Translations under genes and position numbers: made by a program | Source: an uncultured archaeon | GTDB lineage: Archaea > Iainarchaeota > Iainarchaeia > Iainarchaeales > 1-14-0-10-31-34 | Length of the DNA stretch: 64,000 bases | Reading direction: 5' to 3' | Assembly (NCBI GenBank): GCA_964608675.1 | Contig: CAZSOZ010000003.1 | Location: forward strand, 32,001 to 96,000 | Shown here: in pieces, positions 16,762 to 60,360 of the stretch | Position numbering within the stretch: position 1 is the first letter of the stretch | Layout: every line of letters starts with the position of its first letter | Notes under the pieces: model-generated | What the model was told of the DNA's origin: nothing | The model's database searches: none | Seen by the model: the letters and a program-made list of their open reading frames with translations, nothing else

Positions 16762-16770
16762 ATTATCACC

Positions 16771-16791
16771 ATATTAATATAGTATTAATAT
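16771..16791. promoter_or_regulatory. Candidate TA operator (ATATTAATA-tag-TATTAATAT)
   Basis: 9-bp inverted repeat just upstream of the antitoxin SD. AT-only, so weak support. Confidence 0.4.
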
Positions 16792-16810
16792 TGTATTAAA
16801 AAACTTTCTT

Positions 16811-17950: not shown

Positions 17951-18052
17951 TTAAATCACTTTTATTAATATTATTAAACTGTTTTTTTTAATGCTTTGTT
18001 TTCTTTTTTTTCCTGGGAACTTTTAAAAATAGTTTCTATTTATTAATATTTC

Positions 18053-21565: not shown

Positions 21566-21656
21566 TTTATCCCCCCGGAACAAAAATTTTTGTTTTAAGT
21601 AAAGAATTAGTAGAATATTCTGATTGAAAATGTTTTTTAATGCTTTTATTTTTTTG

Positions 21657-39835: not shown

Positions 39836-39904
39836 TAAACCACTAAAATCAATTTTATCATATTATTCTTGCAACAATTTAAATAAGTTAATTTTTTAAT
39901 CCAG

Positions 39905-39930
39905 TTTTGTACCAAAAACCGCTTTAATAA
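39905..39930 (+). promoter_or_regulatory. TTTTGTACCAAAA motif plus TATA box upstream of the flippase gene
   Basis: Motif at 39905-39917, TTTAATAA at 39923. Confidence 0.65.
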
Positions 39931-40007
39931 AAGAACTTAAAATGAAAAAGTATTTAATTAAGTTCATTGGATTTTATTTAGTTAGTCACTTTTTTTTGGT
40001 TTATTTT

Positions 40008-41477
40008 ATGAGTACAATAAGGACAATAGGAAAAAACGTTTGTTTTTTAAGTGCAGGGAATTTAATTCAAAAACTGCTTTCTTTGGCAATGGTAATTTAT
40101 TTAGCACAAAAGCTTGGAGTAGGGGATTTTGGCGTTTATTCTTTTGCTTTTTCTTTTGTTTTAATGTTTACTGTTTTTGGCGATTTAGGGGTTGGAACAT
40201 ATATTTTGAGGGAAATAGCTAAAGACAAAATTAGGGCTTCAAGGCTTCTTGGAGATGCATTTATAGTTAAACTCGGCTTGTTTTTATTTGTTCTTTTAGC
40301 AATTTTTCTTTCAATACTTGCTTTTCATTTTTTTTCTCCAAATGAATACCCTTTTGTAGTGGTGTTTTTTGTTTTGCTTGCAGGCATTTCTTTATTGTTA
40401 GATTCAATGGCCGGATTGTTTAGAATGATTTTTTTTGCTTTCCAGGAAATGCAGTATGAATTTTTTGCCAACACCTTCTATAAACTTCTTTTAGTGATTT
40501 TGACTGCCGGAGTATTGTTTTTGGGTTTTGGATTAAAGGAAGTCTTTTTTGTTGCATTGTTTTCTAGTTTGGTTAATTTTGTTTTAAGTTTTGTTTTAGT
40601 ACTAAAAAAATTTACTGTTCCAAAAATCCAAATAAATTTTTCTAGATACAAGAAATTAATTATTGCCGGCCTGCCTTTTTGTTTTTTGGCTGTTTTCATG
40701 TCTTTTTATGCTAATATGGATTCTATTATGCTTTCTTTTTTTAAGGGAAATATTAGTGTTGGTTATTATTCTGCTGCAATGCGTTTAATTAATACGTTGT
40801 CTTTTATTCCTGCTGCTTTTATGTCAGCTATTTTTCCTATTATGGCTTCTTTTTTTGCTGGATCAAATAAATCCCTTAATTTGGTTATTTCAAAGTCATT
40901 CAAGTATTTATTGATTGTTGTTTTGCCTGTTGCTTTTGCTACTACTCTTCTCTCTGGAAGAATAATTGAATTAATTTATCCTACAATTCAAGGAAACGAT
41001 TTTTCGCCTGCTGCTTCTGCTTTAACTATTTTAATTTGGTTTTCTGTTTTGAATTTCTTGAATTTGATTTTTTTAAATTCTTTGGCTTCAACTGCATTTG
41101 AAAAAAAAGCTTTAATTATTGTTGGTGTTTCTTTGTTTTTTAATTTTTTTCTTAATCTTTTTTTGATTCCTTTATTTGATTTTCAAGGAGCTGCTTTTGC
41201 CAGTGTTTTGTCTCAAATTGTTTTCTTTTTGCTTGGAGCATATTTTGTTTCAAAGTATTTCTTTGGTTTTCTTTCTTTTTTTAAACTAATTTTTAAAACA
41301 GCAGTTAAGCCTTTGATTTCAAGTTTAATTGTTTTTGGTTTTATTTACTTTTTTTTTTATTTGAATTTTTTCATTTTGATTGTGATTTCTTTAGTTCTTT
41401 ATTTGATTGCATTGTATTTAATTAAAGGTTTTGATGAAAAAGATATTTCTTTTTTCAGAAAACTGATTAACAAATAG
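40008..41477 (+). CDS. Wzx/AglR-like MOP-family flippase
   Basis: LG..DFGVYSFA, DLG, VGYYSAA, LNLFLIP...GAAFAS. About 14 TM segments. ATG at 40008. Confidence 0.92.
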   Translation: MSTIRTIGKNVCFLSAGNLIQKLLSLAMVIYLAQKLGVGDFGVYSFAFSFVLMFTVFGDLGVGTYILREIAKDKIRASRLLGDAFIVKLGLFLFVLLAIFLSILAFHFFSPNEYPFVVVFFVLLAGISLLLDSMAGLFRMIFFAFQEMQYEFFANTFYKLLLVILTAGVLFLGFGLKEVFFVALFSSLVNFVLSFVLVLKKFTVPKIQINFSRYKKLIIAGLPFCFLAVFMSFYANMDSIMLSFFKGNISVGYYSAAMRLINTLSFIPAAFMSAIFPIMASFFAGSNKSLNLVISKSFKYLLIVVLPVAFATTLLSGRIIELIYPTIQGNDFSPAASALTILIWFSVLNFLNLIFLNSLASTAFEKKALIIVGVSLFFNFFLNLFLIPLFDFQGAAFASVLSQIVFFLLGAYFVSKYFFGFLSFFKLIFKTAVKPLISSLIVFGFIYFFFYLNFFILIVISLVLYLIALYLIKGFDEKDISFFRKLINK

Positions 41478-41478
41478 T

Positions 41479-42123
41479 TTATTTGAATGCAACTAAAACT
41501 ATTGTATTGTTTGTTATGCCAATTAAACCCAAAAATTTTTGTATTGATATAACATGTTTTGTTTTTAGTATTCCTTTTCTTATCAGCCAGCCGAATCCTC
41601 TGATGCTTTTGCTTTCATGTTCAACAGAAAAATTTCTGAATCCTGCATCAAATGCCACTTGCTTTAATGACTGTTTTGTAAAAGGCCTCACATGCGTGTA
41701 ATCGTCATAAAAGCTGCTGTGTTTTTTGTCATGCGTCCTAATCCAGTCATTTGTCATTACAACAAGTTTCCCGTTTTTTTTAAGGATTCTTCTCAATTCT
41801 TTGACCATAAATAAAGGATTTTGAATGTGTTCTATTACATAAGAAGAAAACACTGCATCAAATTCTTCGTTTTTGAATGAAAGTTTTTTTGTTAAATCCA
41901 TTTGCATTGCATTCAATCCTTTTTCTTTGCAGATTTTAATTGATTCTTCATCAAAATCTATTCCCTGAATTTGTTTTGGAGCAAGTGCAAGAAATGACCC
42001 GACACTGCATCCTGCTTCAAGGATTTTTCCTTTTACATCAGAAAAATAAGTTTGAAACAAAACACTTGTTTTTGCTGTATCAAAATTTTTTTTAGTAAAC
42101 TGTTTTTCTGTGTAATAACTCAT
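41479..42123 (-). CDS. Class I SAM-dependent methyltransferase
   Basis: LEAGCSVG, FDAV..VIEH, DDYTHVRPFT. Confidence 0.88.
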   Translation of the reverse strand: MSYYTEKQFTKKNFDTAKTSVLFQTYFSDVKGKILEAGCSVGSFLALAPKQIQGIDFDEESIKICKEKGLNAMQMDLTKKLSFKNEEFDAVFSSYVIEHIQNPLFMVKELRRILKKNGKLVVMTNDWIRTHDKKHSSFYDDYTHVRPFTKQSLKQVAFDAGFRNFSVEHESKSIRGFGWLIRKGILKTKHVISIQKFLGLIGITNNTIVLVAFK

Positions 42124-42186
42124 TTAATCACTTTTTTATATATTAAATCAAAACAACTATTTTAATCTTTCTTTTTTAATTCATTC

Positions 42187-42208
42187 TTGTACCAAAATAG
42201 TTTATTAA
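42187..42208 (+). promoter_or_regulatory. TTGTACCAAAA motif plus TATA box upstream of the formyltransferase operon
   Basis: Motif at 42187-42197, TTTATTAA at 42201. Confidence 0.6.
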
Positions 42209-42293
42209 TCCCTTTTCTTTTTTTATCAGAAAGCTTTAAAATCATTTTAAGACAGGTTTACTTCAATAATCTTTTGGTGAATATGGTGAATAT

Positions 42294-43040
42294 ATGAATA
42301 ATCCGAAAATTGTTGTAATGGGAAAAAATAAGATTGCCTGGGAATGCAGCAAGTTTTTACTAGAGCAAAAAGAAAATATTGTGGGGGTTGTTGTTGGCGG
42401 AAAAGCGTGGCAGGAAAGCCTTGAAACTTTTGCGAAAGAAAATAATCTTCCTTATTGGAATTTTGAAAAAATTAATTCCCCTGAGGCTGTTCAGAAGTTA
42501 AAGGAATTAGAGCCTGACTTCATTTTTTCTTTTCAGTTTGACCAGATTCTTAAAAAACAGGTAATTGAAATCCCAAACAAAGGCTGTATTAACCTTCATT
42601 TTGCTTTTCTTCCTAATTACAGGGGCTGTCATACTATAGCAAAGGCAATGCTGAACAAAGAACAATTTCATGGAGTTACTTTGCATTATATGGTTGAAGG
42701 CATTGATTCAGGGAATATTATTTCACAAAAAAAAGTTAAGATTGAAAAACAATGGACTGCAAGGAACTTATACGATAAACTAACAGAAGAAGGAGTTAAC
42801 TTGTTTAAGGAAACATGGCCTTTGCTTAAAGAAGAAAAAATTGAACCAAAAACTCAAGGAAAAAATTTTTCTTATTATGACCAAAATTCAGTCAACTACA
42901 AAGAGTTAGCTAAACTTGACCTAAACAAATTTGATTCATGGCAGATTAAGGCAATGATTTTTCCGCCTTTTCAGTATCCTTACTTTGAATTAGATGGACT
43001 GAAGTTTTTTATTACTAAAGTGGAAAAGAAAAAGGAGTGA
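42294..43040 (+). CDS. Sugar N-formyltransferase (Fmt/ArnA-like)
   Basis: INLHFAFLPNYRG and GVTLHYM..GIDSG catalytic motifs. Short, without the tRNA-binding domain; lies next to a sugar aminotransferase. Confidence 0.85.
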   Translation: MNNPKIVVMGKNKIAWECSKFLLEQKENIVGVVVGGKAWQESLETFAKENNLPYWNFEKINSPEAVQKLKELEPDFIFSFQFDQILKKQVIEIPNKGCINLHFAFLPNYRGCHTIAKAMLNKEQFHGVTLHYMVEGIDSGNIISQKKVKIEKQWTARNLYDKLTEEGVNLFKETWPLLKEEKIEPKTQGKNFSYYDQNSVNYKELAKLDLNKFDSWQIKAMIFPPFQYPYFELDGLKFFITKVEKKKE

Positions 43041-43044
43041 AAAA

Positions 43045-44148
43045 ATGAAAGTAAATTTTGTTGATTTAAAAAAAATGCATGAACCCATAAGAAATGAAAT
43101 TGATTTTGCAATAAAAGAAATAGTAGACAATACTGCGTTTGTTTTAGGCAAGCCGGTTGAATTATTTGAAGAAAATTTTGCTTCTTATTGTCAGGCAAAG
43201 TTTGGTGTAGGAGTCAGTTCAGGAACTGCTGCATTGCATTTGTCTTTTCTTTCTTTGGGAATAGGAAAAGGAGATGAAGTGATTACTGTTCCAAACACTT
43301 TTTTTGCTACAGTAGAAGCAATTTTGTACACTGGAGCTAAACCTGTTTTTGTTGATGTACAGGAAGATTCATTTAATTTGGATGCAGAAAAACTTGAAGA
43401 AAAAATTTCAGATAAAACTAAAGCAATAATTCCAGTGCATTTATATGGTCAGCCTGCAGACATGAAGCCAATTCAAGAAATTGCAGAAAAACACGATTTA
43501 AAGATTGTTGAAGATGCCTGTCAGGCTCATGGGGCAGAATACAACGGAAAAAAAGCAGGTTCTTTAGCGGACCTTTCTTGTTTTAGTTTTTATCCTGCAA
43601 AAAATTTAGGTGCTTTTGGCGAAGGCGGAATGATTACAGGAAACAATGAAGAATTAATTGAAAAAGCCCGAACTTTAAGAGCCCATGGAGAAAAACCAAA
43701 AAACACTCACAACATTGTAGGATTTAATTATCGTTTAGAGGCATTGCAGGCTTCAGTTTTGAATGTTAAATTAAAGAAATTAGATGAATGGAATTCAATG
43801 AGAAGGAATGCTGCAAAAAATTACAATGAAGCCTTGAATGGATTTGAAGGAGTAATTCTTCCAAAACAAATGCCTTATGCAAAGCATGTTTATCATTTGT
43901 TTGTTGCAAGAGTAAAAGAAAGAGAGAAAATACAGAATTTATTGAAACAAAATGAAATTTTTACTGGCATCCATTATCCTATTCCTGTTCATTTACAGCC
44001 GGCTCTTTCTGATTTCTCTTATAATAAAGGAGATTTCCCTGTTGCAGAAAAATTAATGAGTGAAATAATTTCTTTGCCAATGCATCCTTTTTTAACTGAA
44101 GAAGAAATTGGTTTTGTAGGAGAAAAATTGAAAGAGGTAATAAAATGA
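43045..44148 (+). CDS. DegT/DnrJ/EryC1/StrS PLP sugar aminotransferase
   Basis: SGTAAL, VHLYGQ, EDACQAHG, SFYPAKNLGAFGEGG. Confidence 0.95.
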   Translation: MKVNFVDLKKMHEPIRNEIDFAIKEIVDNTAFVLGKPVELFEENFASYCQAKFGVGVSSGTAALHLSFLSLGIGKGDEVITVPNTFFATVEAILYTGAKPVFVDVQEDSFNLDAEKLEEKISDKTKAIIPVHLYGQPADMKPIQEIAEKHDLKIVEDACQAHGAEYNGKKAGSLADLSCFSFYPAKNLGAFGEGGMITGNNEELIEKARTLRAHGEKPKNTHNIVGFNYRLEALQASVLNVKLKKLDEWNSMRRNAAKNYNEALNGFEGVILPKQMPYAKHVYHLFVARVKEREKIQNLLKQNEIFTGIHYPIPVHLQPALSDFSYNKGDFPVAEKLMSEIISLPMHPFLTEEEIGFVGEKLKEVIK

Positions 44149-45080
44149 AAGTTGGGGTTATTGGAGCAGGCTATTTTGGAAAAAACCATGTAAGAGAATA
44201 TGTTAATTCAGGGTGTGATGTTACAGTATGCGATTTAAAAGAAGAAAACCTTAATGCAGTGAAAGAAAAACATAAAGTGAACACAACAAAAGACTTGAAT
44301 GAGTTATTGAATGATTCTGAATTAAAGGCTGTAAGCGTTTGTACTCAGAATTCAACTCATTTTGATATAGCAAAAAAGTTTTTGGAAAAAGGAAAGCATG
44401 TTTTATTGGAAAAACCAATGACTTTGGATTCAAAACAGGCTTTTGAGTTGGTTGAATTAGCAGAAAAAAGCAGGGTAATTTTAAGTATTGGTCATATTTT
44501 TCGTTATAATAATGGTTTAAGAAAATTAAAGGAAATGATTTCTGAAGGAGAATTAGGCGAAATTTTTTTGGCAAGATTGGTTTGGACTAATTTGAATCCT
44601 CCTTTTGAAGACAACAGGGACATTTATTTTGATTTAGGGCCTCATGCTTTGGATATAATTTATTTTATTTTAGGAAAGCTTCCAAATAAAGTTTCGTGCA
44701 GGGGAATTCCTTCAAGGGAAAACGCTTCACAGGATGAAACTGCTTTCATTAATTGTGTTGCAGGAAACACTTTGATTAACATTGATGTAAGCTGGGTTAC
44801 TCCAGAAAAAAAGAGAACTGTTTTTGTAGTTGGTTCAAAAAAGTCTGCTTTAATTGACTGTATGACACAGCAAATCACTTTAATTAATAATTCTGATATG
44901 AGCGAAAAAGAAATTTTTGTTCAGGCAAGCAATCCTTTAGTTGAAGAAATATTTGACTTCCTTAACGCAGTAAAACAGAATAGCAAAACTGTTTCAGAAG
45001 GAAAAGTTGGGGCAGAAATAGTGAAATTAATTGAATTATGCCATAAATCAATTAAAGAACAAAAAACAGTTTCTTTTTAG
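44145..45080 (+). CDS. Gfo/Idh/MocA oxidoreductase (WbpB/WlbA-like NDP-sugar dehydrogenase)
   Basis: GAGYFG, EKPM, GHIFRYN, DLGPHALD. Confidence 0.88.
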   Translation: MKVGVIGAGYFGKNHVREYVNSGCDVTVCDLKEENLNAVKEKHKVNTTKDLNELLNDSELKAVSVCTQNSTHFDIAKKFLEKGKHVLLEKPMTLDSKQAFELVELAEKSRVILSIGHIFRYNNGLRKLKEMISEGELGEIFLARLVWTNLNPPFEDNRDIYFDLGPHALDIIYFILGKLPNKVSCRGIPSRENASQDETAFINCVAGNTLINIDVSWVTPEKKRTVFVVGSKKSALIDCMTQQITLINNSDMSEKEIFVQASNPLVEEIFDFLNAVKQNSKTVSEGKVGAEIVKLIELCHKSIKEQKTVSF

Positions 45081-45088
45081 GTTAAAAA

Positions 45089-46003
45089 ATGAAAGTCTGT
45101 GTTATAATCCCAACTTTAAACGAAGAAGAGTTTATTGGAAAACTAATTGATTCAATTAATTCAAATTCTTATAAAAAAATAGAAGTAATTGTAGTTGATG
45201 ACGGTTCAACAGACAAAACAGTTGAAATAGCCAAAAGCAAAGGAGCAAAAGTTTTTGTTAATTCTCCTGGAAGAAGGGGTCCTTCCTTTGGATGGAATTT
45301 TGCTGCAAAAAATACTACTGCAGAGATTTTATGCATTCTAGGAGCGGATTTCTTTATTTCAGATAAAGATTTCATCAAAAAAGCAGTTCAGGCATTTGAT
45401 GAAAACACTGTTGCAGTTTACACTTCTTACACTACAATTCAGGATACTTTTATTGAAAGAATTGCTACAAAAAAAATAGGAGTTTCATTTGAGCCAAGGT
45501 TTATCAGAAAAGATGTTTTTCTTAAATTAGGGGGTTTTCCTTTGATTGGTTTTGGCGAAGACCAAATTTTTTCTTATAAACTCAAAAAGTTTATTAAAGA
45601 AAACAATTTAAAAGAAAAAATAGTTAAAGACGCATTTTTTTCAGGTCACGGAGTGCATTCTTTAAGTGAAATGTACAAGCAGGCTGAATGGTATGGAAAA
45701 ACTTCAATTCCTTTCATTAAATTGGTTCCAAATGAATTCAAATTAAAGCAATTCACTTCAGTTTTTTTGCGCCCATTTTATTTCCTTTCTTTTATTTTTT
45801 CACTTCTTTCAGTTTACTTTTTTCCTTTAATTGTTTTTTCAATTCCATTTTTTTTGATTTACTTTAAAATAATTTTTGAGTCAATTAAAGCAAAAAACTT
45901 TTTTGTTTTAGGAAAAACTTTTACTTTCCTGTTTTTTGGGATGGGAATGTTACATGGATTGTTTCTTTATTTAAGTGGAATAAACAGAAAAACAGGCCAT
46001 TAA
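45089..46003 (+). CDS. GT2 glycosyltransferase with C-terminal TM helices
   Basis: IIPTLNEE, VDDGSTD, GED. Confidence 0.9.
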   Translation: MKVCVIIPTLNEEEFIGKLIDSINSNSYKKIEVIVVDDGSTDKTVEIAKSKGAKVFVNSPGRRGPSFGWNFAAKNTTAEILCILGADFFISDKDFIKKAVQAFDENTVAVYTSYTTIQDTFIERIATKKIGVSFEPRFIRKDVFLKLGGFPLIGFGEDQIFSYKLKKFIKENNLKEKIVKDAFFSGHGVHSLSEMYKQAEWYGKTSIPFIKLVPNEFKLKQFTSVFLRPFYFLSFIFSLLSVYFFPLIVFSIPFFLIYFKIIFESIKAKNFFVLGKTFTFLFFGMGMLHGLFLYLSGINRKTGH

Positions 46004-46629
46004 TTTTTTTTGCAGAATAAAATGCAGTTATGTAGAGAGCAAAATCCAAAGAAAAAATTTGCAATAATCCTGAAAAAGTATTTTGGCGGAAAAAAGCTTA
46101 ATCCAACCCAGTACAATTCTGTTTTAAATCCAAATAATTCACTGAAACTTGCTTCATCTAAAGGAGAAGGAGGAAGCTTGTGTGTTCTGTCTTTCCAGTA
46201 CTCTATTCCAGATAAATTCATTACATTAGGAAAAGCAATTATTAATGTTCCATTTTTGTTTAATATTTCACTGCATCTTTTAATGAATTTTTCTCTTTCC
46301 TGTATTTCTATATGTTCATACACATGGTTTGCTATTATTACATCAAATTTTTCTTTTGTATTCCAGAAATCCATATAAAAATTATTTGTTTTCAGCCATT
46401 CAACGCTTTTAGAATCAATGTCGTATCCAAAATATTTTCCTTTGTCTTTCAAAGTTTTTTTGTAAAAAAAGCTTTCTTTTAAGCATCCAAAATCAAGTAT
46501 TTTTCCTTTGAATTTAATTTTTTTGTCAATAAATTTTAATGGTTCAAAAGGAAAAAAAATTTTTTTCGGATTAATTTTTCCTTTTTTTCTTCTTTCAAAA
46601 ATTTTAGAATAATCGTTTCTTTCTTTCAT
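46000..46629 (-). CDS. Class I SAM-dependent methyltransferase
   Basis: ILDFGC, GYDID, FDVI..HVYEH, WKDRTH. Confidence 0.82.
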   Translation of the reverse strand: MKERNDYSKIFERRKKGKINPKKIFFPFEPLKFIDKKIKFKGKILDFGCLKESFFYKKTLKDKGKYFGYDIDSKSVEWLKTNNFYMDFWNTKEKFDVIIANHVYEHIEIQEREKFIKRCSEILNKNGTLIIAFPNVMNLSGIEYWKDRTHKLPPSPLDEASFSELFGFKTELYWVGLSFFPPKYFFRIIANFFFGFCSLHNCILFCKKN

Positions 46630-46633
46630 TGAA

Positions 46634-47710
46634 TCACTTTCTTAAAACATTTTCATACACTTCAAGAGTTTCTTTTGCGGTTTTTTTCCAGGAAAATTTG
46701 TTTGCCTGCTTTAATCCTTTTTTTTTCAGTGAATTTTGTAAGGATTTGTTCTCTAAAACTGTTTTTATTTTTTCTCTTATTGTATTTTCATTAATTTTTT
46801 CAATTATTGCAGGCATTTTTCCTGTTATTTCAGGAATGCTTGCATGGTTTGTTGTTAATACAGGGCATCCGCACGCCATTGCTTCAAGTATTGGTAAACC
46901 AAATCCTTCATAGCTTGACGGAAAAACACTTAAGTTAACTGCATTGTAATAATCTGCCAGCTTTTCTTCTGAAACATTTTTTTCATAAAAAACATTTTCA
47001 ATGTTTTCTTTTTCAATAACTTTTCTTGTTTTTTTCCTTTGTTCTCCGATTCTGATTAATTCTGCATTCATGTCTTTAACTGCTTTAATTAATTCTGTTG
47101 TGTTTTTTCTTTTTTCTTCGGATCCTACATTAAGCAGATAAATTTTGTTTTCATTTAATCCAAGTTTTTGTCTGGCTTTTTTTTTGTTTGTTTCTCTGAA
47201 AATTTTTTTATCATAACCTAAATAAATTGTTTTTATTTTTTCTTTTTTTATTCCAAATTTTTTGATTAATTCTTGTTTAGTGAAATCTGAAATAGAAATT
47301 ATTTGGTTTGCTTTTTTCATGGATTTCATTGATTTTTCAAGGAAAACTCTCATTGCAAAAGGATAATCTTTTTTTAATGCTGAAGGAATTATGTCCATAC
47401 AGCTTACAATTGAAGGAGAATTGTATTCTGTTATTCCTGCAATAAACTGATTGCTTGCATGAAATAAATTGTATTCTTTTGGAATTTTTTTTGGATAAAA
47501 GTAATGCGAATTAAGGGTTTTTTTGAGTACCGGAAAATTTATTCCTGTTCCCAAACTTTTTATTTTGTTTTTTTCTTCGGTGTTTCCCAAAAAAATCATT
47601 TCAATGTCAATTTTGTTTTTTAATTCTTGAAATAAACTGAAAGCATATTTTCCTATTCCTGTTTCTTTTGGGTAATCATTTATTAATGCAGTTTTTGTAG
47701 ATTTTTTCAA
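46634..47710 (-). CDS. GT4 glycosyltransferase (mannosyltransferase-like)
   Basis: RKN, YEGFGLPILEAMACG. Confidence 0.92.
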   Translation of the reverse strand: MKKSTKTALINDYPKETGIGKYAFSLFQELKNKIDIEMIFLGNTEEKNKIKSLGTGINFPVLKKTLNSHYFYPKKIPKEYNLFHASNQFIAGITEYNSPSIVSCMDIIPSALKKDYPFAMRVFLEKSMKSMKKANQIISISDFTKQELIKKFGIKKEKIKTIYLGYDKKIFRETNKKKARQKLGLNENKIYLLNVGSEEKRKNTTELIKAVKDMNAELIRIGEQRKKTRKVIEKENIENVFYEKNVSEEKLADYYNAVNLSVFPSSYEGFGLPILEAMACGCPVLTTNHASIPEITGKMPAIIEKINENTIREKIKTVLENKSLQNSLKKKGLKQANKFSWKKTAKETLEVYENVLRK

Positions 47711-48767
47711 TTTCTTTCACCTTTTTTTTCCATCCAAATTTTTTTGCTTCTTGCAGGCAATTTTTTGAAACCTTGTTTAATTCTGTTTCTTTTTTTTCAA
47801 AGATTTTTGTTAAAGAATTTTTTTCTTTAAAGTCAATCAAATAGCCGGTTTTATTGTTTTTAATGAGTTCTCTGAATGCCTGAATGTTGTTCACTACGGG
47901 AATTGTTCCTGAGGCCATTCCTTCTATTACTGCAATTCCAAATCCTTCGTATTCTGAAGCAGAAAGATTAAATCCTGCCTGCTTTACTTTTTTTATTAAT
48001 TTTTTTTCATTTATTTTTCCAGTAAAAAAAATTTTTTTTTCCAGTTTTTTTTCTTTTATTTTTTCTTTTAATTCTTTTGTTATTCTATGAAAATCTTCTC
48101 CTATTATTTCAAGGCTTTTTTTTGGAAACTGTTTGTTTGCTTCTGCAAATCTTTTAATCAGTAAATCTATTCTTTTGTTTTTTGAAATTCTTCCGACAAA
48201 AACGGTTTTGTTGAAATCTTTTTTTCCTTTGAATTCAAATTTTTTTGTGTTAACTGCATTCTGGACAAAAACAACTTTATCTGAAACTTTTTTAAATTGT
48301 TCAAAATCGTTTCTGCTGTCTGCAATAATTTTGTCTGCTTTTTTTAAATGATGTTTAAGCCAGTAATCATTATATAATTTTTTCAGCAGACTTTTTTTGT
48401 TTGTATGAAAGATTCCTCCGTGAGTGGAAATTAAAACTGGTTTTTTGTGTTCATTTTTTTTTGCTAAAATGAAATCAGAGAAAAACCCTATTCCATGGAC
48501 ATGTACTAAATCAAAGTTTTTTATGAATTCAATTACTTTTGGCGCAATTTTGTATATCCTTAAATCCCAGAATGGAATCCTGTTCACTTTGATTCCTTTG
48601 ATTGTTTCTTTTTCTTTTAATTTTTTTTTTCCTTTACTGCATTTATTTAAGCAAACTAATTCTGTTTGAATTCCTGTTTTTTTTAATTCAAGGCATAAAT
48701 CCAGTGTATATTTTTCTGTTCCTCCTGTGCACGGCCAAAAATGGTGCGAAACATGCAGTACTTTCAT
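47676..48767 (-). CDS. GT4 glycosyltransferase
   Basis: GGTE, THGGIFHT, YEGFGIAVIEGMASG. Confidence 0.92.
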   Translation of the reverse strand: MKVLHVSHHFWPCTGGTEKYTLDLCLELKKTGIQTELVCLNKCSKGKKKLKEKETIKGIKVNRIPFWDLRIYKIAPKVIEFIKNFDLVHVHGIGFFSDFILAKKNEHKKPVLISTHGGIFHTNKKSLLKKLYNDYWLKHHLKKADKIIADSRNDFEQFKKVSDKVVFVQNAVNTKKFEFKGKKDFNKTVFVGRISKNKRIDLLIKRFAEANKQFPKKSLEIIGEDFHRITKELKEKIKEKKLEKKIFFTGKINEKKLIKKVKQAGFNLSASEYEGFGIAVIEGMASGTIPVVNNIQAFRELIKNNKTGYLIDFKEKNSLTKIFEKKETELNKVSKNCLQEAKKFGWKKKVKEIEKIYKNCINK

Positions 48768-51282: not shown

Positions 51283-51293
51283 TTTTTTTCACC

Positions 51294-52172: not shown

Positions 52173-53554
52173 TCAATCCCGCCTTTTGTCCAGAAATCTT
52201 TTTTGCTTAATTCCAGTCTTTCATGTTCAAATAATTCAAATAATTCTTCTTTTTCTGTTATTTTTTTTGTTATTGAAACCATTTTTTTTGAAACATTTCT
52301 TCCATATAATTTTTTTCTTTCCTTCATTTTTTTGTTTAAGTTCTTGTTTTCCATTACTTCTCTGATTATCTTCAATGCAATTTCTTTTTTGATTGGCGGG
52401 GCAATTAAATTGCTTCCTTCAAATACTGCTTCTGGTCTGTCAGAATTAAATCTTAAAACTATTCCTGGAATTCCTAATGAATTTGTTTCTTCCTGAATTG
52501 AACCTGAATCTGTTGCAACTGCAGTGCATTTTTGCATTGCTGCAATTACATCAGTGTATTGAGGCCATACACTGGAATAAATAAAATTTTTGTATTTTTT
52601 TGTGAGTTTTTCAGTTTTGTTTTTTAATCCGTATTCTTGTAATGCTTTTTCTGTTGCTCCCAAAGAAATAAATAAAACATTTTTTTCTTCTTTGATTAAT
52701 TCAATCATTGAATCATACAAAACTTTAAACCTGTGTTTTGATGAAATATTTTCTCTTCTATGAATGCAGAACCTGACTAAATTGCCTTCTTCCAATACAG
52801 GGTATTTTTCAAAAATTGAACTTTCTTTTATTCTTTTTTCTGCAAATTCCAGTGCATCAACAACCGGATTTCCTACAGTAAAAATCCTGTTTTTTTCGTA
52901 TCCTTCGTTTTCGAGGTGTTCAGCATTTAATTCGGTTGGAGCAAAATGGATTCCTGCACTTGGAGCGCTTCCCCGGGTATCAAATTGTTCAGGATAAGGT
53001 TCATAGGAACCTTTAGTCCAGCCTTCAGGGTTCATCGCTTTTTCATAGTATTTTTCTGTTTCAAATTCATTCATTAAATAATCAAATATTTTTTTGGATG
53101 GAGTCATTGTCCTTAATCCTGCTTCAACATGTGCTACTCCGTTTTTTAATGCAAAGCATGCAATTCCTCCTGCTAAAGCAGTTGTTGTGTCTCCGTAAGT
53201 GTATGGAATAACTTTTTTTCCTATTTTTTCCAAGACTATTCCTAAACGGTTTATTATCTGGCTTTGCTGTTCAAACAATTTTCCTTTTACATTTAAATTA
53301 ATATCAGGATTAATTCCAAATTCTTGTTCCATTCCTTTTGATAAATTCCATGAATGATGCTGTCCTGAATGAACAACCAAAACAAACTCGTTTTCTTTTT
53401 TTAATTCCAAAATTAATGGAGCTTGTTTGATTATATCAGGTTTTGTTGCTATTAACACTAAATGAACGGGATTTTTTTCGTTTTTTATTTCTTCAAAAAG
53501 CCTTTTTCTTACTGTTATTTCGCCTTTTTCTTCTAACAAAATTTTTTCATTCAT
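52166..53554 (-). CDS. wecB: UDP-GlcNAc 2-epimerase (non-hydrolysing)
   Basis: TKPDIIK, SGQH, GDTTT, HVEAGLRT, HRREN, DSGSIQEE, DRPEA. Confidence 0.9.
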   Translation of the reverse strand: MNEKILLEEKGEITVRKRLFEEIKNEKNPVHLVLIATKPDIIKQAPLILELKKENEFVLVVHSGQHHSWNLSKGMEQEFGINPDINLNVKGKLFEQQSQIINRLGIVLEKIGKKVIPYTYGDTTTALAGGIACFALKNGVAHVEAGLRTMTPSKKIFDYLMNEFETEKYYEKAMNPEGWTKGSYEPYPEQFDTRGSAPSAGIHFAPTELNAEHLENEGYEKNRIFTVGNPVVDALEFAEKRIKESSIFEKYPVLEEGNLVRFCIHRRENISSKHRFKVLYDSMIELIKEEKNVLFISLGATEKALQEYGLKNKTEKLTKKYKNFIYSSVWPQYTDVIAAMQKCTAVATDSGSIQEETNSLGIPGIVLRFNSDRPEAVFEGSNLIAPPIKKEIALKIIREVMENKNLNKKMKERKKLYGRNVSKKMVSITKKITEKEELFELFEHERLELSKKDFWTKGGIEW

Positions 53555-53626
53555 AAAAAACCATTTTTAAAAAATCAGTTAATATTTCTATTTTAAATTC
53601 TCTTTTTTAATATAATTGATTTTGCT

Positions 53627-53652
53627 TTAATAAAGGGTTTTTTGGTACAAAA
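53627..53652 (-). promoter_or_regulatory. TTTTGTACCAAAA motif plus TATA box upstream of the wecB operon
   Basis: Minus strand reads TTTTGTACCAAAAAACCCTTTATTAA. Confidence 0.65.
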
Positions 53653-53659
53653 GTCAGTT

Positions 53660-54685: not shown

Positions 54686-54759
54686 TTTTAATCAAAAAAG
54701 ATTGTTTTTCCAACTCTTTTTAAATAAATTGTTTTCTTGATTATTTAAAGGTAATTAAA

Positions 54760-55674
54760 TTGGGCAGAATTTCTTTGTATGCATTTCATTTATTTTTGTT
54801 TTCTTTTGTTCTGCATTTTATTGGATTAATTAATCTTTATTTTAATCCTTTTGTTTTCAATGAATTTTTTTTTTATGGTTTGCTTCTTGATTTAATTTTT
54901 GTTTTTGCAGTTTTTTTTGATTTAGGGATTCCTATTCTATTTTTTACTGAAAATAATAAATTCAAGTTCAATCCAATAAATCTTCAAGTTTCTGTAGGAA
55001 TGACTGCATACAATGACGAAAAAGCAATTGGTCCTTCAGTAAAACAGTTCAAAGAATTAAAGGAAGTTGTTTCTGTTGTTGTTGTAGACAATAACTGCAT
55101 TGATAATACGGCTTTGGAGGCAAAAAAAGCAGGCGCTCAAGTGGTAAAGGAACCAGTTCAGGGTTATGGTTCTGCCTGCATGCGTGCATTAAAGGAAGCA
55201 AGAAAAACAGGAAACTTAATTTGTTTAGTTGAAGGCGACATGACTTTTTCTGCTTCAGATTTAAAGAAATTAACTGCTTATATTGAAAACGCAGACATGG
55301 TTTTAGGTACAAGAACTACAGCAGAAATAATTGATTCTGATTCTCAAGTCACTTGGTTCATGCGTTATGGAAACTTGTTTATAGCAAAACTTCTTCAACT
55401 GCGTTTTTGGGCAAAAGTAAGATTAACTGATGTAGGTTGCACATATAGAATAATCAGACCTGAAGCTTTAAATAAAATAATTGACAAGCTTTACGTTAAA
55501 GGTCATTATTTTTCTCCTCATATGATTTTAATTGCATTAGAAAACGATTTGAAGGTAATTGAGGTTCCTGTTACCTTGAAGAAAAGAGTAGGGGAAAGCA
55601 AGGGAGTTGGAGATGACACCGTAAAGGGTCTGATTACAGGATTTAAAATGTGGTGGATGATTTTAACTCAGTAA
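54760..55674 (+). CDS. GT2 (polyprenol-phosphate glycosyltransferase-like) with N-terminal TM helices
   Basis: AYNDE, VDNN, QGYG, EGDMT, LTDVGCTYR, RVGESK. Confidence 0.85.
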   Translation: MGRISLYAFHLFLFSFVLHFIGLINLYFNPFVFNEFFFYGLLLDLIFVFAVFFDLGIPILFFTENNKFKFNPINLQVSVGMTAYNDEKAIGPSVKQFKELKEVVSVVVVDNNCIDNTALEAKKAGAQVVKEPVQGYGSACMRALKEARKTGNLICLVEGDMTFSASDLKKLTAYIENADMVLGTRTTAEIIDSDSQVTWFMRYGNLFIAKLLQLRFWAKVRLTDVGCTYRIIRPEALNKIIDKLYVKGHYFSPHMILIALENDLKVIEVPVTLKKRVGESKGVGDDTVKGLITGFKMWWMILTQ

Positions 55675-57379
55675 TTTTTTTTAATATAATCAAAAAAACA
55701 ATAATTGAAATAATGCTTATTGTGATTCCAATCCAGTCAATCAAGGTTTTTTCGTATTTTAATTCAATTAATCCTTTTTTTGTGTTCAGTATTTTTATTC
55801 CGGGTTTGTTGTCTTCTAATTCAAGTTTTTTTTCTTTTTGGTATGCATTCCATCTAGGAAAAAAACTTTGTTTTAATAAAACATTTCCTCCAAATGATTC
55901 AATTAAAATTTTTTCATTTGAAAATTTAATTATTTTTCCATTTTCAATCAAAGAAGAAAATTCTTCGTAAACATAAAGTTTTGGAAAAGTTTTTTTTCCT
56001 GCAGTTTGGGTTAACCCGCATTTTTTTATGTATTCTTCTGCATTTTCATCTAATATGATCCAGTAATTAACTGCAGTTTTTTGGATTCCTTCAATGAATT
56101 CATTGCATTCAAGTTCCATTGAAATCATTTTTTCTCCTGTTTTATGGCTTTCTTTTAAAGTATAAGCATTATACCCCCATCCGTTTAATGAAAGTTTTTT
56201 TTGTTTGACTGCAATAAAAGAATGAATCACAGGATTGTATGGAAGCAATTCATACCTTGAATTATTAGGAATTTTCTCAGCCAGTCCGCTGATTTCATTT
56301 ATTTTGTATTCTTTCAGCCTTGGTTCTTCAAATAAATACTGTCTTTCCACAACAGGAAAAAATAAAATTACTGCAGACAAAAAAATTGCGGTTAATGCAA
56401 TTAAATGATTTTTTTTAATTAAATTTTCTTTTATCATTGCAAGAAAAGCAAGCAAAATTACAAAAATAAAAAAAGCATGATATGAATGTGCAAAAGGTTT
56501 TTCTATTATGGGAACCAAAGGAAAAACCAGTGAAATAACTGAAAGCAGAAAACTTCCTGTTAAAAGCCTGTTAATTTTTGAATATTTTTGCTTTAATTTT
56601 CTAAACAAAAACAAAGATACAACTAATGCAATTGCAAGAAAAATCCCTGATGCAAGAATTCCAGTTGAATTTAAAAGCATGCCTTTTTGTTCTTGAACAA
56701 CACTTAAATTTAAAAAAGAAAAAAATGGAATTAACCAAAAAGAAACAATTCCTGCACTAATCAATCCAGTCAATAAAAGTTTTTTTAATTCGTTTTTTGA
56801 TTCAATTAAAAAAACAAAACTTAATCCAACAAAAATTAATGCACCTAAATGAGACAAAGCAGTAAGGCAGACAAACAATATACTTAAAAAAAAGTATTTT
56901 TTTGAAAATTTTTTTTCTTTTAAAAAACTGTAAAATGAAGCAAAAGCCATAACAAAAAAGAGCCATGCAGTGAATTCATAAAATCTGTTAAAAAACTTGA
57001 ATAAAATTGGATTAAAAACAAAAAGTATTCCTGAAAGAAAAGAAAATCTTTTGCTGAACCCAAATTGTTTTCCTAAAAAAATAAAAGCAAAAGGAAAAAC
57101 CAGCCTTATAATTAGAATAGAAACAGTTAAAGGAAGAGTAAAGCTTCCAATTCCAAGGAATTTAATAAGGAGGGGAAGCAGTCCAGGCAGAATTAAATCG
57201 TATGTTCCTACAGGAATCCCCAAATGCTGTTCTTGAAGCCAGTTTTCAGAAAAAGAATTATATCTTAATGCATAGCCCGCATAATCAAAGCCTAAATCAT
57301 CAAAAAAAAATTGAGTGGAAACAACAATCATTAAAACATACAATAAAATAATTCCTGCATCAAAAATTTTTTTTTGCAT
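55643..57379 (-). CDS. Polytopic membrane protein, GT-C/YfhO-like
   Basis: About 11 TM segments with an acidic first loop (DDLGFD). YfhO-like C-terminus (QSFFPRWNAY...IELKYEKT..DWIG). Confidence 0.65.
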   Translation of the reverse strand: MQKKIFDAGIILLYVLMIVVSTQFFFDDLGFDYAGYALRYNSFSENWLQEQHLGIPVGTYDLILPGLLPLLIKFLGIGSFTLPLTVSILIIRLVFPFAFIFLGKQFGFSKRFSFLSGILFVFNPILFKFFNRFYEFTAWLFFVMAFASFYSFLKEKKFSKKYFFLSILFVCLTALSHLGALIFVGLSFVFLIESKNELKKLLLTGLISAGIVSFWLIPFFSFLNLSVVQEQKGMLLNSTGILASGIFLAIALVVSLFLFRKLKQKYSKINRLLTGSFLLSVISLVFPLVPIIEKPFAHSYHAFFIFVILLAFLAMIKENLIKKNHLIALTAIFLSAVILFFPVVERQYLFEEPRLKEYKINEISGLAEKIPNNSRYELLPYNPVIHSFIAVKQKKLSLNGWGYNAYTLKESHKTGEKMISMELECNEFIEGIQKTAVNYWIILDENAEEYIKKCGLTQTAGKKTFPKLYVYEEFSSLIENGKIIKFSNEKILIESFGGNVLLKQSFFPRWNAYQKEKKLELEDNKPGIKILNTKKGLIELKYEKTLIDWIGITISIISIIVFLIILKKITELKSSTTF

Positions 57380-58365
57380 TATTTTCCTCTGATTTTGTTT
57401 TTAATTTCAATAAAATTTATTTTTGAAATATTTTTAAATGAAATATTAAGTTTTTTAACTGAAATAATTCCAAAAACAATAATAACTATAGTTTGAATTA
57501 AATGAATTATTACTGCAAGAGAAACAGCTGAATTCTGATTTAATCCAAACGCCATAAAAAAAATAATGAATCCTGCTTCAAATGTTCCCAGATAGCTCGG
57601 CGCACTAGGAATCATTACTGCAAAACCTGTAATTACAATTAACAAAAAAACCTGAAATAAACTCAATGGAATTCCTATTGCTGAAGCAGAAAAATAAAAA
57701 ACCATGCTTTCAGTAAGCCAGACTAAAGATGAATAAAAAATTATTAAAATAAAATTTTTTTCTGCGCGGAAAATTTTTCCTGCTTCTTTCATTTCATAAA
57801 AAACATATTTTATTTTGTCTTTAAGAGAAGGAAAAATTTTGGCTGTAATTCTTCCAAGAAACCTGAATTTATCGGGCTTAAAAAAGAAAAAGAATGCAAG
57901 CAAAAAAAGCAGCGCAGGCACTATTATGATTGACTTGAATTCTTTGGGAATTTCAATAAAAAATAATGAGACTGCAAAGAAACCAAATAAAGTCAGTCCG
58001 TCAATTATTCTGTCAACCATTACTGTAGAAAAACTTTTTATTTTTCCAATGCTTTTTTTCTTTGATAAAATGTATGCTCTTGCAATTTCTCCTGCTCTTG
58101 CAGGAAGCAATGCATTAACAAAAAATCCAGTGTTTGTAATAAAAAAAGATTCTTTAAATGAAATTTTAGTTAAAGGCCGGACAACATATTTCCATCTTAA
58201 TCCTCTGAATACAAAAACAAGAGAGTATAATAAAATTAAAAACAAAAAATTTTGCAGCCCGATTTTACTTATTTCTTTTAAAACCTGATTTAAATCTATA
58301 ACTGAAAAAATTAATGCAATTAAAATCAGGCTAAACAGATAAGAAAAAATTATTTCTTTTTTCAT
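57379..58365 (-). CDS. LPG-synthase-TM / UPF0104 (AglD-associated flippase-like) membrane protein
   Basis: RGLRW, LPARAGEIAR, DRIID, PSAPSYLGTFE. Confidence 0.9.
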   Translation of the reverse strand: MKKEIIFSYLFSLILIALIFSVIDLNQVLKEISKIGLQNFLFLILLYSLVFVFRGLRWKYVVRPLTKISFKESFFITNTGFFVNALLPARAGEIARAYILSKKKSIGKIKSFSTVMVDRIIDGLTLFGFFAVSLFFIEIPKEFKSIIIVPALLFLLAFFFFFKPDKFRFLGRITAKIFPSLKDKIKYVFYEMKEAGKIFRAEKNFILIIFYSSLVWLTESMVFYFSASAIGIPLSLFQVFLLIVITGFAVMIPSAPSYLGTFEAGFIIFFMAFGLNQNSAVSLAVIIHLIQTIVIIVFGIISVKKLNISFKNISKINFIEIKNKIRGK

Positions 58366-58371
58366 TTTTTT

Positions 58372-58836
58372 TCATCCTTCCAAAAAAAATTTAATTTCCT
58401 TTATTATTTCAGTGTTATTTTGTTTTACTTCAACAAAATTTCTTGCTTTTTTTATTGCATTTCCTAAATTTTTCACAGTTTTTTCCATTACAGCTTTGTT
58501 TTCTTTTTCTAATGCTTTAGCCAAATCAATTTGATGGTTGTTAACGTGTTCTTTGAATTTTTTTTCTCTAGGCACAATCACAATAGGCTTTCTGTTTTTT
58601 AATGAATTAATTATTGAACCTGCGCCTCCATGAGTTATTACAAGACTGCTTTCTTTTATTTTTTTTTCCATTTCTTGTGGAAAAAAAAATTTTTTCCATT
58701 TACAGTTTTTTGGTTTTATTTTAGAGTTTCCTGTTTGAATCAAAAAATTTTCTTCAAAACTTTCTGCCAGTTTATCTATTGCTTTAATTAACCTGTCAAA
58801 TCCCTGATTATGTGTTCCTGTTAAAACTAAAATCAA
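58372..58836 (-). CDS. Alg13/PssE(CpsG)-like GT28 catalytic subunit
   Basis: TGTH..FDRL, QTG, THGGAGS, PR...EHVNNHQ. Confidence 0.9.
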   Translation of the reverse strand: MILVLTGTHNQGFDRLIKAIDKLAESFEENFLIQTGNSKIKPKNCKWKKFFFPQEMEKKIKESSLVITHGGAGSIINSLKNRKPIVIVPREKKFKEHVNNHQIDLAKALEKENKAVMEKTVKNLGNAIKKARNFVEVKQNNTEIIKEIKFFLEG

Positions 58837-59279
58837 AAAACCGCCCCTTTAAATTTTGCTTTGGGATAAAACTTTAAGTTTTCTTTCCATTGAACTAAAA
58901 ACAAGTCAGCAAACTTGTATGCAATTTTTCCTGAAAAAGAAGGTTTTTTTATTCTGCAAAAGCTTTCAATAAAAACAGTTTTTTTTCCCATTAATTTTGC
59001 AATAAATAATGCAGGCAAAGCTATTCCTGCTCCGGTTGAAATAATTGCATCAGGTTTTTCTTTTAATAAAATTTTAAGGCTTTGAAAAAAATTCCATGCA
59101 AACTTGAACGGATTCCTTTTAGGGTCAACTACAAAATAAACTTTGTTTTTTTCTGCTAATTCAATTGAATCAAATCTTTTAAAAGTAATAAAAAAATGTT
59201 CATGTTTTTTGTAGTATTCTTCAATCTGCTTTATTTCAGTTAAATGTCCTCCTGCAGAACACGCAATGCACAACTTCAT
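58833..59279 (-). CDS. Alg14/PssD(CpsF)-like GT subunit
   Basis: SAGGHL, STGAGIA, FIESFCR..PS.SG, VQW. Confidence 0.9.
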   Translation of the reverse strand: MKLCIACSAGGHLTEIKQIEEYYKKHEHFFITFKRFDSIELAEKNKVYFVVDPKRNPFKFAWNFFQSLKILLKEKPDAIISTGAGIALPALFIAKLMGKKTVFIESFCRIKKPSFSGKIAYKFADLFLVQWKENLKFYPKAKFKGAVF

Positions 59280-60271
59280 ATTAACCCTGTATTAATTAAA
59301 ATAATTGTTATAATACAAATTACTGTCTGACTTCCTAAAATGATTCCTACAACTTGTTTTTCTGTAAAACTTCCTTGTTTCATTATCCACTGAGTTAATG
59401 AACCGCCTTCAGGCCTTGGCTTTAATTTTCCGTTTTCCTGTGGGATTCCAAAACAATGGCTTTGAAATTTATGTTTTGCTTTGAATCCTAATTCAACAAA
59501 AAACAATGCCATTAAAATTACTCCGATTTTTTCAATGTTTCCCACAATAACTGAAGCTGCAACTGTTGCTCCAAGCATTAAAGTTAATGAATCCCCTGGA
59601 AAAATTTTTGCCTGAAACCAATTGAATTTCAAGAAAGCTAAAATTGCTCCAAGCATTGCAATCAAGAAAAAAATCACTTCAATATTTCCTGAAATAAAAG
59701 CAAAATAAAGCAAAGTAGAAATTATTAATGTGCCTAAACCTGCTTCTAATCCATTCATTCCTGCCAGCATATTGAATGCATTTGATGCTCCTGTAATTCC
59801 CAAAGGAATCATTACAAGAGAATAAAAAATGCCTAAATCTACTATTATTATAAATGGAATTGACATATAACTGTCTCCAACTGAAACTGCCATTAAAGGA
59901 AGTGCAGCAAAAACCGGAAACAATGCATGTTGCCACTGTCTTATTCCTTTTCTCCATCCAATTAAATCATCCACTAATCCAATAAATCCAATTAATAAAA
60001 CAGTCATAAACATTGCAAGAAAAGCAGTTAAATTAATTTTAATTAATTCAAGGTAAGTGGAAATAAAAATTGTTAGTATTATTCCTGTACTGAAACCAAA
60101 AATAACGCTTATGCCTCCCATTTCTGCTACCTGTGGTTTATTGAATTTGTTCATGTCTTTTCCTGTAAGGTTTCGCATATGCATTCTTTTGATTATAAAA
60201 GGAGTAATAATAAAACTTACTCCAAAAGACGCAGTAAAAATCAAAATAAAAGAAAGCAATTCAAACAACAT
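59276..60271 (-). CDS. aglH: UDP-GlcNAc:polyprenol-phosphate GlcNAc-1-P transferase (Alg7/AglH, MraY-like)
   Basis: GKDMNK...VAEMGG, GLVDD, NAFNMLAGMNGLEAG, FNW..AKIFPGDS. Confidence 0.88.
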   Translation of the reverse strand: MLFELLSFILIFTASFGVSFIITPFIIKRMHMRNLTGKDMNKFNKPQVAEMGGISVIFGFSTGIILTIFISTYLELIKINLTAFLAMFMTVLLIGFIGLVDDLIGWRKGIRQWQHALFPVFAALPLMAVSVGDSYMSIPFIIIVDLGIFYSLVMIPLGITGASNAFNMLAGMNGLEAGLGTLIISTLLYFAFISGNIEVIFFLIAMLGAILAFLKFNWFQAKIFPGDSLTLMLGATVAASVIVGNIEKIGVILMALFFVELGFKAKHKFQSHCFGIPQENGKLKPRPEGGSLTQWIMKQGSFTEKQVVGIILGSQTVICIITIILINTGLI

Positions 60272-60319
60272 TCATTTCACTTTTTTAATAATTGAAATAA
60301 AAAAAATTAATGGATTTCT

Positions 60320-60345
60320 TTTTTAAATAAAAAATTGGTACAAAA
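60320..60345 (-). promoter_or_regulatory. TTTTGTACCAA motif plus TATA box upstream of the aglH operon
   Basis: Minus strand reads TTTTGTACCAATTTTTTATTTAAAAA. Confidence 0.6.
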
Positions 60346-60360
60346 CTAGTTTTAAAGTCT

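Follow-up and report, generated by a model that had tools for sequence, protein, structure and literature searches.

Archaeal activators such as EarA, the ara-box factor, TFB-RF1 and Ptr2 have sites directly upstream of the transcription factor B recognition element (BRE) and the TATA box, often at promoters with a weak BRE, and they recruit the TATA-binding protein (TBP) or transcription factor B (TFB) at such weak BRE/TATA sequences, according to the parts of PMC5512572 consulted. In Thermococcus kodakarensis, the consulted sections of PMC6737238 describe a palindrome upstream of the BRE/TATA at three operons of one pathway, which is the activator site of Tar (TK0271). For surface glycans, the transcriptional control of archaeal N-glycosylation islands is largely unknown. 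A transcriptional analysis of the agl genes of Haloferax volcanii exists (cited in the excerpt of PMC3871713), and this species chooses its glycosylation pathway depending on salinity (PMC3892788, in the excerpt consulted). Here we describe a short motif, TTTTG-TAC-CAAAA with the 9-mer core TTGTACCAA, that lies upstream of TATA-like octamers at four glycosylation promoters in 64,000 nt of DNA from an uncultured archaeon of the Iainarchaeota (contig CAZSOZ010000003.1, positions 32,001 to 96,000); this whole 64-kb stretch is called the window below.

The element is real as a sequence feature. As a reading of it we lean, by somewhat better than even chances, towards a lineage-specific operator beside the core promoter, in which motif and octamer together would co-regulate four glycan-assembly units. 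The first-pass annotation of this DNA had noted that archaeal activators bind right upstream of the BRE/TATA, in agreement with PMC5512572 and PMC6737238 as far as their consulted parts go. In the literature searched, no operator, factor or dedicated regulator was found for archaeal N-glycosylation or surface-glycan clusters, and the sources on Haloferax volcanii, in their consulted parts, gave no operator or factor for the agl genes. Searches on archaeal glycosylation regulation, DPANN promoters and activator sites returned nothing matching the motif, the text of the 9-mer retrieved only unrelated primer or sequence matches, and PMC7289017 yielded nothing relevant.

Recurrence of the motif at four glycan-assembly units

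The 9-mer TTGTACCAA occurs exactly four times in the window, twice on each strand, and all four copies are in intergenic DNA, which makes up only 3.5-3.9% of the window. The core positions first annotated, 39907 (+), 42187 (+), 53650 (-) and 60343 (-), were all matched exactly. The copies extend to a 13-bp consensus, T(T/C)TTGTACCAA(A/T)(A/T), and are listed with their weight-matrix scores.

39905..39917 (core 39907-39915), plus strand: motif copy 1, TTTTGTACCAAAA, 5' of the flippase gene, 31.6 bits
42185..42197 (core 42187-42195), plus strand: motif copy 2, TCTTGTACCAAAA, 5' of the formyltransferase operon, 30.3 bits
53640..53652 (core 53642-53650), minus strand: motif copy 3, TTTTGTACCAAAA, before wecB, 31.1 bits
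60333..60345 (core 60335-60343), minus strand: motif copy 4, TTTTGTACCAATT, before the GT4 (AglH-like) gene, 26.1 bits

Although it had been called a palindrome, the 13-mer is an imperfect dyad of 5-nt arms, TTTTG/CAAAA, around the asymmetric centre TAC; the arms are perfect at two of the four sites, and read TCTTG at site 2 and CAATT at site 4. Because the centre is asymmetric, the motif has a direction, and its polarity is constant (TAC, never GTA, towards the octamer) at all four window sites and in the orthologous promoter of a relative, locus L070. That the motif is always oriented with transcription, as annotated earlier, holds for the direction at four of four sites, but the orientation is informative at sites 3 and 4 only, where both neighbour genes are on the minus strand, because sites 1 and 2 sit between divergent genes.

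Four inferred transcription units follow the motif, with assignments from Pfam and NCBIfam.

40008..41477, plus strand: unit 1, Wzx-type flippase (Polysacc_synt)
42294..46003, plus strand: unit 2, inferred operon with gaps or overlaps of <=8 nt, encoding a formyltransferase, a DegT-type aminotransferase, a GFO/UDP-GlcNAc 3-dehydrogenase-like oxidoreductase and a GT2 glycosyltransferase
46000..53554, minus strand: unit 3, inferred seven-gene operon, encoding a WecB-like 2-epimerase, GT2, a B12-binding radical SAM enzyme, GT2, GT4, GT4 and a methyltransferase
55643..60271, minus strand: unit 4, inferred five-gene operon, encoding a GT4-family phosphosugar transferase (AglH-like), Alg14-like and Alg13-like proteins (PssD/PssE), a flippase-like LPG_synthase_TM protein and a 578-aa EpsG-like membrane protein

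Together the four units hold 17 genes, which are functionally coherent in that they belong to glycan assembly; the operon structure of the units is inferred. The nucleotide-sugar operons and aglB are without the motif. The units belong to a glycan-biosynthesis island that runs from about 26 kb to the window end and comprises nucleotide-sugar enzymes, GT2 and GT4 glycosyltransferases, methyltransferases, the Wzx-type flippase, the GT4-family (AglH-like) phosphosugar transferase with its Alg14-like and Alg13-like partners, and AglB. Gene spacing suggests about 15 transcription units in the island. The window as a whole is compact, with 30% G+C, and its gene content is archaeal (AglB/STT3, PAC2, archaeal-type T2SSE/T2SSF pilus genes and one tRNA-Gln). 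A protein-atlas match of AglB points to Archaea in general, and the low G+C, the 3.5% of intergenic DNA and the many unassigned ORFs together give a DPANN-like impression.

Two of the units have features of their own. In unit 4, directly 3' of aglB (58372-60271), the GT4 phosphosugar transferase is followed by separate Alg14-like and Alg13-like genes (NCBIfam PssD/PssE, above cut-off), an order which we take to resemble the eukaryotic ALG7-ALG13/14 steps. The B12-binding radical SAM enzyme of unit 3 (49789-51282, minus strand) has HpnJ as its best NCBIfam match (E 8e-114, below the family cut-off), which points to a sugar that undergoes an unusual C-methylation or rearrangement.

Copies 3 and 4 lie 8 nt past the stop codon of the co-directional upstream epimerase gene and 16 nt past the aglB stop codon, respectively. 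This placement and the inverted 5-nt arms would suit an RNA-level element, such as a hairpin or terminator that serves the genes preceding sites 3 and 4, but the predicted folds are negligible (0 to -3.4 kcal/mol, z -0.9 to +1.4), sites 1 and 2 are without an upstream co-directional gene, and Rfam gave no match at the motif, finding only the tRNA-Gln in the window. A hairpin or terminator was rejected on fold energies no better than those of shuffled sequence, and we give an RNA-level role practically no credence.

The recurrence was compared with chance in several ways. Dinucleotide shuffling gives an expectation of 0.62 copies of TTGTACCAA, and four copies were reached in 1 of 100 shuffles. 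In a look-elsewhere test, in which the 24 intergenic regions were shuffled and any 9-mer with >=3 G/C common to >=4 intergenic regions was counted, 2 of 500 shuffles gave a comparable 9-mer in >=4 regions. Among the 8-mers that contain G/C, TTGTACCA alone is present in four intergenic regions and absent from the rest of the window. Beyond the four sites, no other intergenic 13-mer of the window was found at <=2 mismatches to the motif, and a weight-matrix scan of the window found no weaker copies: scores are 26-32 bits at the four sites, and the best match after them, in coding DNA, has 17 bits. The window's 20 remaining intergenic regions lack the motif. It is present in 4 of 10 island intergenic regions and in 0 of 14 outside the island (Fisher p=0.02), which bears out the first-pass observation that it was not seen in intergenic regions outside the island.

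TTAATCCC/GGGATTAA, common to three intergenic regions, was tried as a second operator and rejected. At the gene starts at 8540 and 63450 it is Shine-Dalgarno-like GGGAT/GGTGAT plus spacer before the ATG; the third copy, in the site-2 spacer, has no ATG after it and looks like chance.

The GTAC within the motif might alternatively be a DNA-methylation site or another site not read by a transcription factor, such as a recombination core. GTAC is found 39 times, against 57 expected from a second-order, trinucleotide-based Markov model and 175 from base composition; 5 of the 39 are intergenic, compared with 3.9% of the DNA (p=0.017), and both orientations of the sites are represented in the island. 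However, no methylase, restriction enzyme or recombinase gene was found in the window, other 4-mer palindromes are equally or more depleted, the conserved stretch is 11-13 nt and not 4, and recombination between the sites would not move promoters. We regard a site of this kind as highly improbable, and GTAC methylation in particular as a long shot. The observed/Markov ratios of the 4-mer palindromes are 0.34 for GATC, 0.55 for TCGA, 0.57 for CTAG, 0.59 for ACGT, 0.65 for AGCT, 0.68 for GTAC and 0.76-0.78 for TATA/ATAT.

Octamers, spacing and rival core-promoter elements

At each site the motif is followed by a TATA-like octamer.

39923..39930, plus strand: site 1, TATA-like octamer TTTAATAA, +16 from the core start
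42201..42208, plus strand: site 2, TATA-like octamer TTTATTAA, +14 from the core start
53627..53634, minus strand: site 3, TATA-like octamer TTTATTAA, +16 from the core start
60320..60327, minus strand: site 4, TATA-like octamer TTTAAAAA, +16 from the core start

The spacing first annotated, 14-16 nt from the core start and 16 in three cases, was recovered at every site. The gap to the octamer is 5 nt from the 13-bp dyad (3 at site 2) and 7 nt from the 9-mer core (5 at site 2). An octamer of the pattern TTTA[AT][AT]AA at +14 to +16 has a background of 78/3856 intergenic positions (2.0%), a pattern that was set after the sites were seen, so that significance is overstated. The coupling of dyad and octamer is clear.

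From octamer start to start codon the distances are 85, 93, 80 and 56 nt at sites 1-4, where the 85-nt value at site 1 assumes that ATG 40008 is the start. The earlier range of 50-85 nt to the start codon thus stands for 85, 80 and 56 nt and fails for the 93 nt of site 2. Other TATA-like octamers of the window are about 30-45 nt from start codons. A Shine-Dalgarno sequence resembling GGTGAT/GGGAT is found 5-9 nt ahead of the start in most genes.

The octamers are nearly symmetric (TTTAATAA/TTTATTAA). No recognisable BRE was found at the four promoters, and no conserved BRE-like sequence adjoins the octamers: the 5-7 nt next to them vary among the sites (AAACCGC, AATAG, AAAACCC, TTTTTTA) and read AATCCTT in L070. 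Relative to the octamer, the invariant GTAC is about 11-14 nt upstream. None of the 27 other intergenic TATA-like octamers of the window carries the motif, which is therefore not a generic BRE; the case in which it would be equally common at unrelated promoters, named in the first-pass annotation as one that would speak against a regulon, was in this way checked within the window.

A more specialised element, an extended BRE or promoter class that a TFB (or TBP) paralogue would recognise directly, had also been put forward. It would agree with the fixed phasing with the octamer, the constant polarity and the 3' arm CAAAA, which is purine-rich like a BRE; CCAAAA-NN-TTTAAATAA elsewhere in archaea looks like an ordinary BRE/TATA. 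However, the 5-7 nt adjoining the octamer are conserved neither among the sites nor in L070, the GTAC is beyond the BRE length of 6-7 nt given in the consulted part of PMC5512572, the spacing is off by 2 nt at site 2, and the dyad symmetry suggests a dimer. Because of the variable octamer-adjoining nucleotides and the distant GTAC, the extended BRE is a poor fit, and we judge it very unlikely.

A different sequence, AAGC(A/T)TTAAAA, recurs in the window (17986-17996, 21635-21645, 42231-42241 and others), with 37 matches at <=1 mismatch against 17 expected, and 0 of 100 shuffles reach 37. For several copies a start codon lies 46-63 nt downstream. This sequence could be the BRE plus TATA that the organism ordinarily uses, but most copies fall within coding DNA, on the minus strand.

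T-rich runs precede the core at the four sites and are rival TATA candidates.

39889..39896, plus strand: T-run TTTTTTAA, rival TATA candidate 18 nt before the core at site 1
42172-42179 (plus strand), 53660-53667 (minus strand) and 60350-60357 (minus strand, CTTTAAAA): similar T-runs

Conservation in a relative and the flippase start

L070 (30% G+C) contains an orthologous divergent C-methyltransferase/flippase pair (Pfam), with 78% and 63% amino-acid identity to the window proteins, respectively, and a third-codon-position identity of 57-65% at conserved residues. The intergenic regions of the pair are identical between the window and L070 at 117 of 174 positions (67%). Within this region, the 13-mer is identical at 13 of 13 positions in the L070 flippase promoter while bases on both sides of it are changed, and the octamer TTTAATAA is identical as well. 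At 67% per site, a pre-specified 13-mer would be intact with a probability of 0.67^13 = 0.005. By this alignment the 13-mer is conserved above the surrounding spacer, and the footprinting in relatives that had been proposed as a check came out in favour of the motif at this one promoter. The L070 locus stops before the site-2 position, and the comparison covers site 1.

The comparison also corrects the start of the flippase gene. ATG 39942, the start of the longest flippase ORF, was rejected: in L070 a stop follows after four codons, neither this ATG nor the next 22 codons are conserved there, and indels precede the conserved ATG. Because ATG 39942 is not conserved, the flippase start is placed at ATG 40008, and with this correction the intergenic region becomes 39836-40007. 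An automatic annotation would probably over-extend the flippase and hide part of the promoter region. In the same spacer, AACAATTTAAATA at 39874-39886 is also conserved at 13 of 13 positions between the window and L070, and probably represents the TATA box from which the divergent methyltransferase-GT4 operon is transcribed.

The upstream T-runs bear on the possibility that the same dyad is a repressor site, at which a bound protein would block TFB/TBP or RNA polymerase, with the dyad abutting the BRE position or following a T-run that serves as TATA. In line with this, all four cores have a T-rich TTT(T)AA element upstream, the near-symmetric octamer of sites 1 and 2, read on the other strand, would put the dyad downstream of a TATA for the divergent methyltransferase genes, and archaeal repressors occlude the BRE/TATA or the region downstream of it, as the consulted part of PMC5512572 describes. 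Against this, the site-1 T-run reads TTTTTTTG in L070, where the downstream octamer is identical; TTTTTTTG is not TATA-like, which argues against the T-run as TATA. With the T-runs as TATA, leaders would be about 56-92 nt, compared with 30-45 nt from octamer to ATG elsewhere, and sites 3 and 4 are without a divergent gene. We consider repression at this dyad unlikely, at about one chance in five.

A candidate operator and its weighing

On the operator reading, the 13-bp dyad would be bound by a probably dimeric DNA-binding protein encoded outside the window, and the bound protein would help TFB/TBP assemble. With the octamer as TATA box, the dyad would span about -36 to -48, upstream of and partly overlapping the place of the BRE, so that an operator of dimer size would be held at a distance of one and a half helical turns from the TATA-box centre, on its upstream side. 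Since the octamers are near-symmetric and no conserved BRE adjoins them, the bound factor could give both recruitment and polarity. The four units (17 genes), which assemble and flip the lipid-linked glycan, would be switched together, and the nucleotide-sugar operons and aglB would keep their own promoters. By analogy with described activators, activation would be favoured over repression by position alone.

Several observations weigh against this reading. As candidate TATA boxes, the +16 octamers would give leaders of about 50-63 nt, whereas octamers elsewhere are about 30-45 nt from starts. Gene-proximal TATA-like elements are present at sites 1-3 (TTTAATTAA at 39952, AAGC-TTTAAAAT at 42231-42240 and TTTAAAATA at 53596), next to which the composite of dyad and octamer may be a distal element. 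Alternatively, the actual TATA could be the T-run 14-18 nt before the core; the dyad would then be placed between the TATA and the transcription start site, an arrangement usual for repressors. In the window, the four sites alone are statistically moderate (1/100; 2/500), with the motif picked after being seen, and the conservation comes from one relative and one site. No regulator gene was found in the window by Pfam searches at E<=1e-5 on 66 ORFs and at E<=0.5 on 15 ORFs (13 of them previously unassigned). In other genomes, a scan of a genome collection with the perfect dyad and a loose TATA pattern returned at least 118 stretches in 118 contigs, one match each, in nearly all cases from unrelated organisms and mostly from bacteria. 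The six promoter-placed archaeal matches besides L070 precede NUDIX, YdjM-like membrane protein, EF-1alpha or unassigned genes, and because these other archaeal promoter matches precede unrelated genes, the sequence is not tied to glycosylation outside this lineage. One of the loci, L108 from Parvarchaeota, carries TTGTACCAA twice in the intergenic DNA ahead of EF-1alpha, at a spacing of 183 nt.

120-128 and 303-311 of L108, minus-strand reading: two TTGTACCAA copies, the downstream one followed by TTTAAATAA

For the regulator, the first-pass annotation had suggested ribbon-helix-helix (RHH) fusions; no such fusion was found, a DUF2683 antitoxin being the sole protein that is RHH-like. A regulator was also sought among the small ORFs at 13.9-16.9 kb, and none was found. 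The antitoxin ORF (80 aa) adjoins a ParE/RelE-like toxin ORF (85 aa) at 16255-16810 on the minus strand, with the ORFs at 16255-16761, and the 49-nt promoter region of the pair contains three tandem TTAATA(C) repeats, which are likely an autoregulatory operator unrelated to the motif. ORFs without a Pfam family form a block at 69-8401, which includes a 1490-aa protein (3053-7525) preceded by three small ORFs, a K/E-rich 266-aa protein (1657-2457, minus strand) with paired CxxC zinc-ribbon motifs at its end, and, at 7526-8401 on the minus strand, a basic protein of 291 aa.

For the collection scan, 2000-nt flanks were retrieved for 80 of the at least 118 loci. The window's own contig was not among the matches listed, and the matches represent chance background, so the scan is uninformative on how frequent the motif is in the source genome. 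Among the matches listed, nine are archaeal, with L070 as the only relative, and seven of the nine (L070 included) are promoter-like in position. Four of the six promoter-placed matches other than L070 read CCAAAA-NN-(T/C)TTAAATAA, which looks like an ordinary BRE/TATA with a chance match of the left arm, and we treated the archaeal matches besides L070 as ordinary BRE/TATA plus chance and not as a conserved regulon. A second TTGTACCAA was found in 5 among the 118 loci listed, namely L010, L042, L071, L094 and L108; of the three inspected, L094 and L071 have copies that look coding, and L108 alone has both in intergenic DNA. The pair in L108 may be chance, or related archaea may use the sequence at other genes. 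Because matches of dyad plus TATA fall in archaeal promoters anyway, the case for the window rests on the recurrence of the G/C core, the spacing and the conservation.

The same evidence bears on the possibility that the motif has no dedicated regulator and is left over from a promoter cassette that was duplicated inside the island, or is in part chance in AT-rich spacer, retained only because it functions as an ordinary promoter. A 51-nt stretch is 73% identical between sites 1 and 3, the statistics from this single window are moderate, and chance matches of dyad plus TATA in other archaea are also promoter-like. However, the likeness between sites is limited to dyad and octamer, with differing spacer and flanks, and a similarity of 71-76% over 40-50 nt is commonplace in the window DNA. 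A long repeat behind the motif was sought and rejected, as the repeat search gave low-complexity families only and the similarity of sites 1 and 3 was no stronger than that of background pairs. The dyad is moreover kept at 13 of 13 positions in L070, compared with 67% for the spacer, and the spacing is fixed at four of four sites, compared with the 2% background. A copied cassette or chance therefore appears improbable to us.

Taken together, the motif is plausible as a regulon operator, as a prediction that draws on a single 64-kb window and a single orthologous promoter. A bolder version, to which we assign only a small probability, is that the dyad and the near-symmetric octamer form a dedicated promoter class, in which a glycan-specific factor, possibly sensitive to methylation of the GTAC that is otherwise depleted in this genome, would set the promoter polarity and switch all of the lipid-linked-glycan assembly genes on or off together; if so, a small-genome archaeon would have a one-factor switch for its surface glycan. 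As a practical handle, the short motif could be used to isolate the factor, to search for further regulon members and to test for block switching of the surface glycan in uncultured small-genome archaea.

As far as the literature searched goes, the kind of element is already known, namely a factor site beside the archaeal core promoter that is common to the operons of one pathway, and the sequence, the targets and the lineage are new. A BRE resembles the motif in lying upstream of the TATA, in being polar and in being partly purine-rich (CAAAA), but the motif differs from it in that it is not adjacent to the octamer, is at 0 of 27 other octamers and is dyad-symmetric. With the agl clusters of Haloferax volcanii the locus shares a clustered island of N-glycosylation genes, but it differs from them in organism, GC content and gene content. 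With the octamer as TATA box, the motif would resemble in position the sites of EarA, the ara-box factor, TFB-RF1 and Ptr2, as they are described in the source parts consulted, and no conserved BRE adjoins the octamer. In those descriptions, EarA uses repeated 6-bp boxes and Ptr2 multiple upstream sites, whereas one dyad per promoter is present here at a fixed distance; none of the four systems, as covered there, controls glycosylation genes, whereas here that role is predicted. By analogy, the closest counterpart is Tar. From the consulted part of its description, the Tar operator is TGGACA-N8-TGTCCA, compared with the compact 13-bp TTTTG-TAC-CAAAA, and Tar acts on aromatic amino acid operons as a known and tested factor, whereas the motif described here is known from sequence and would act in glycan assembly.

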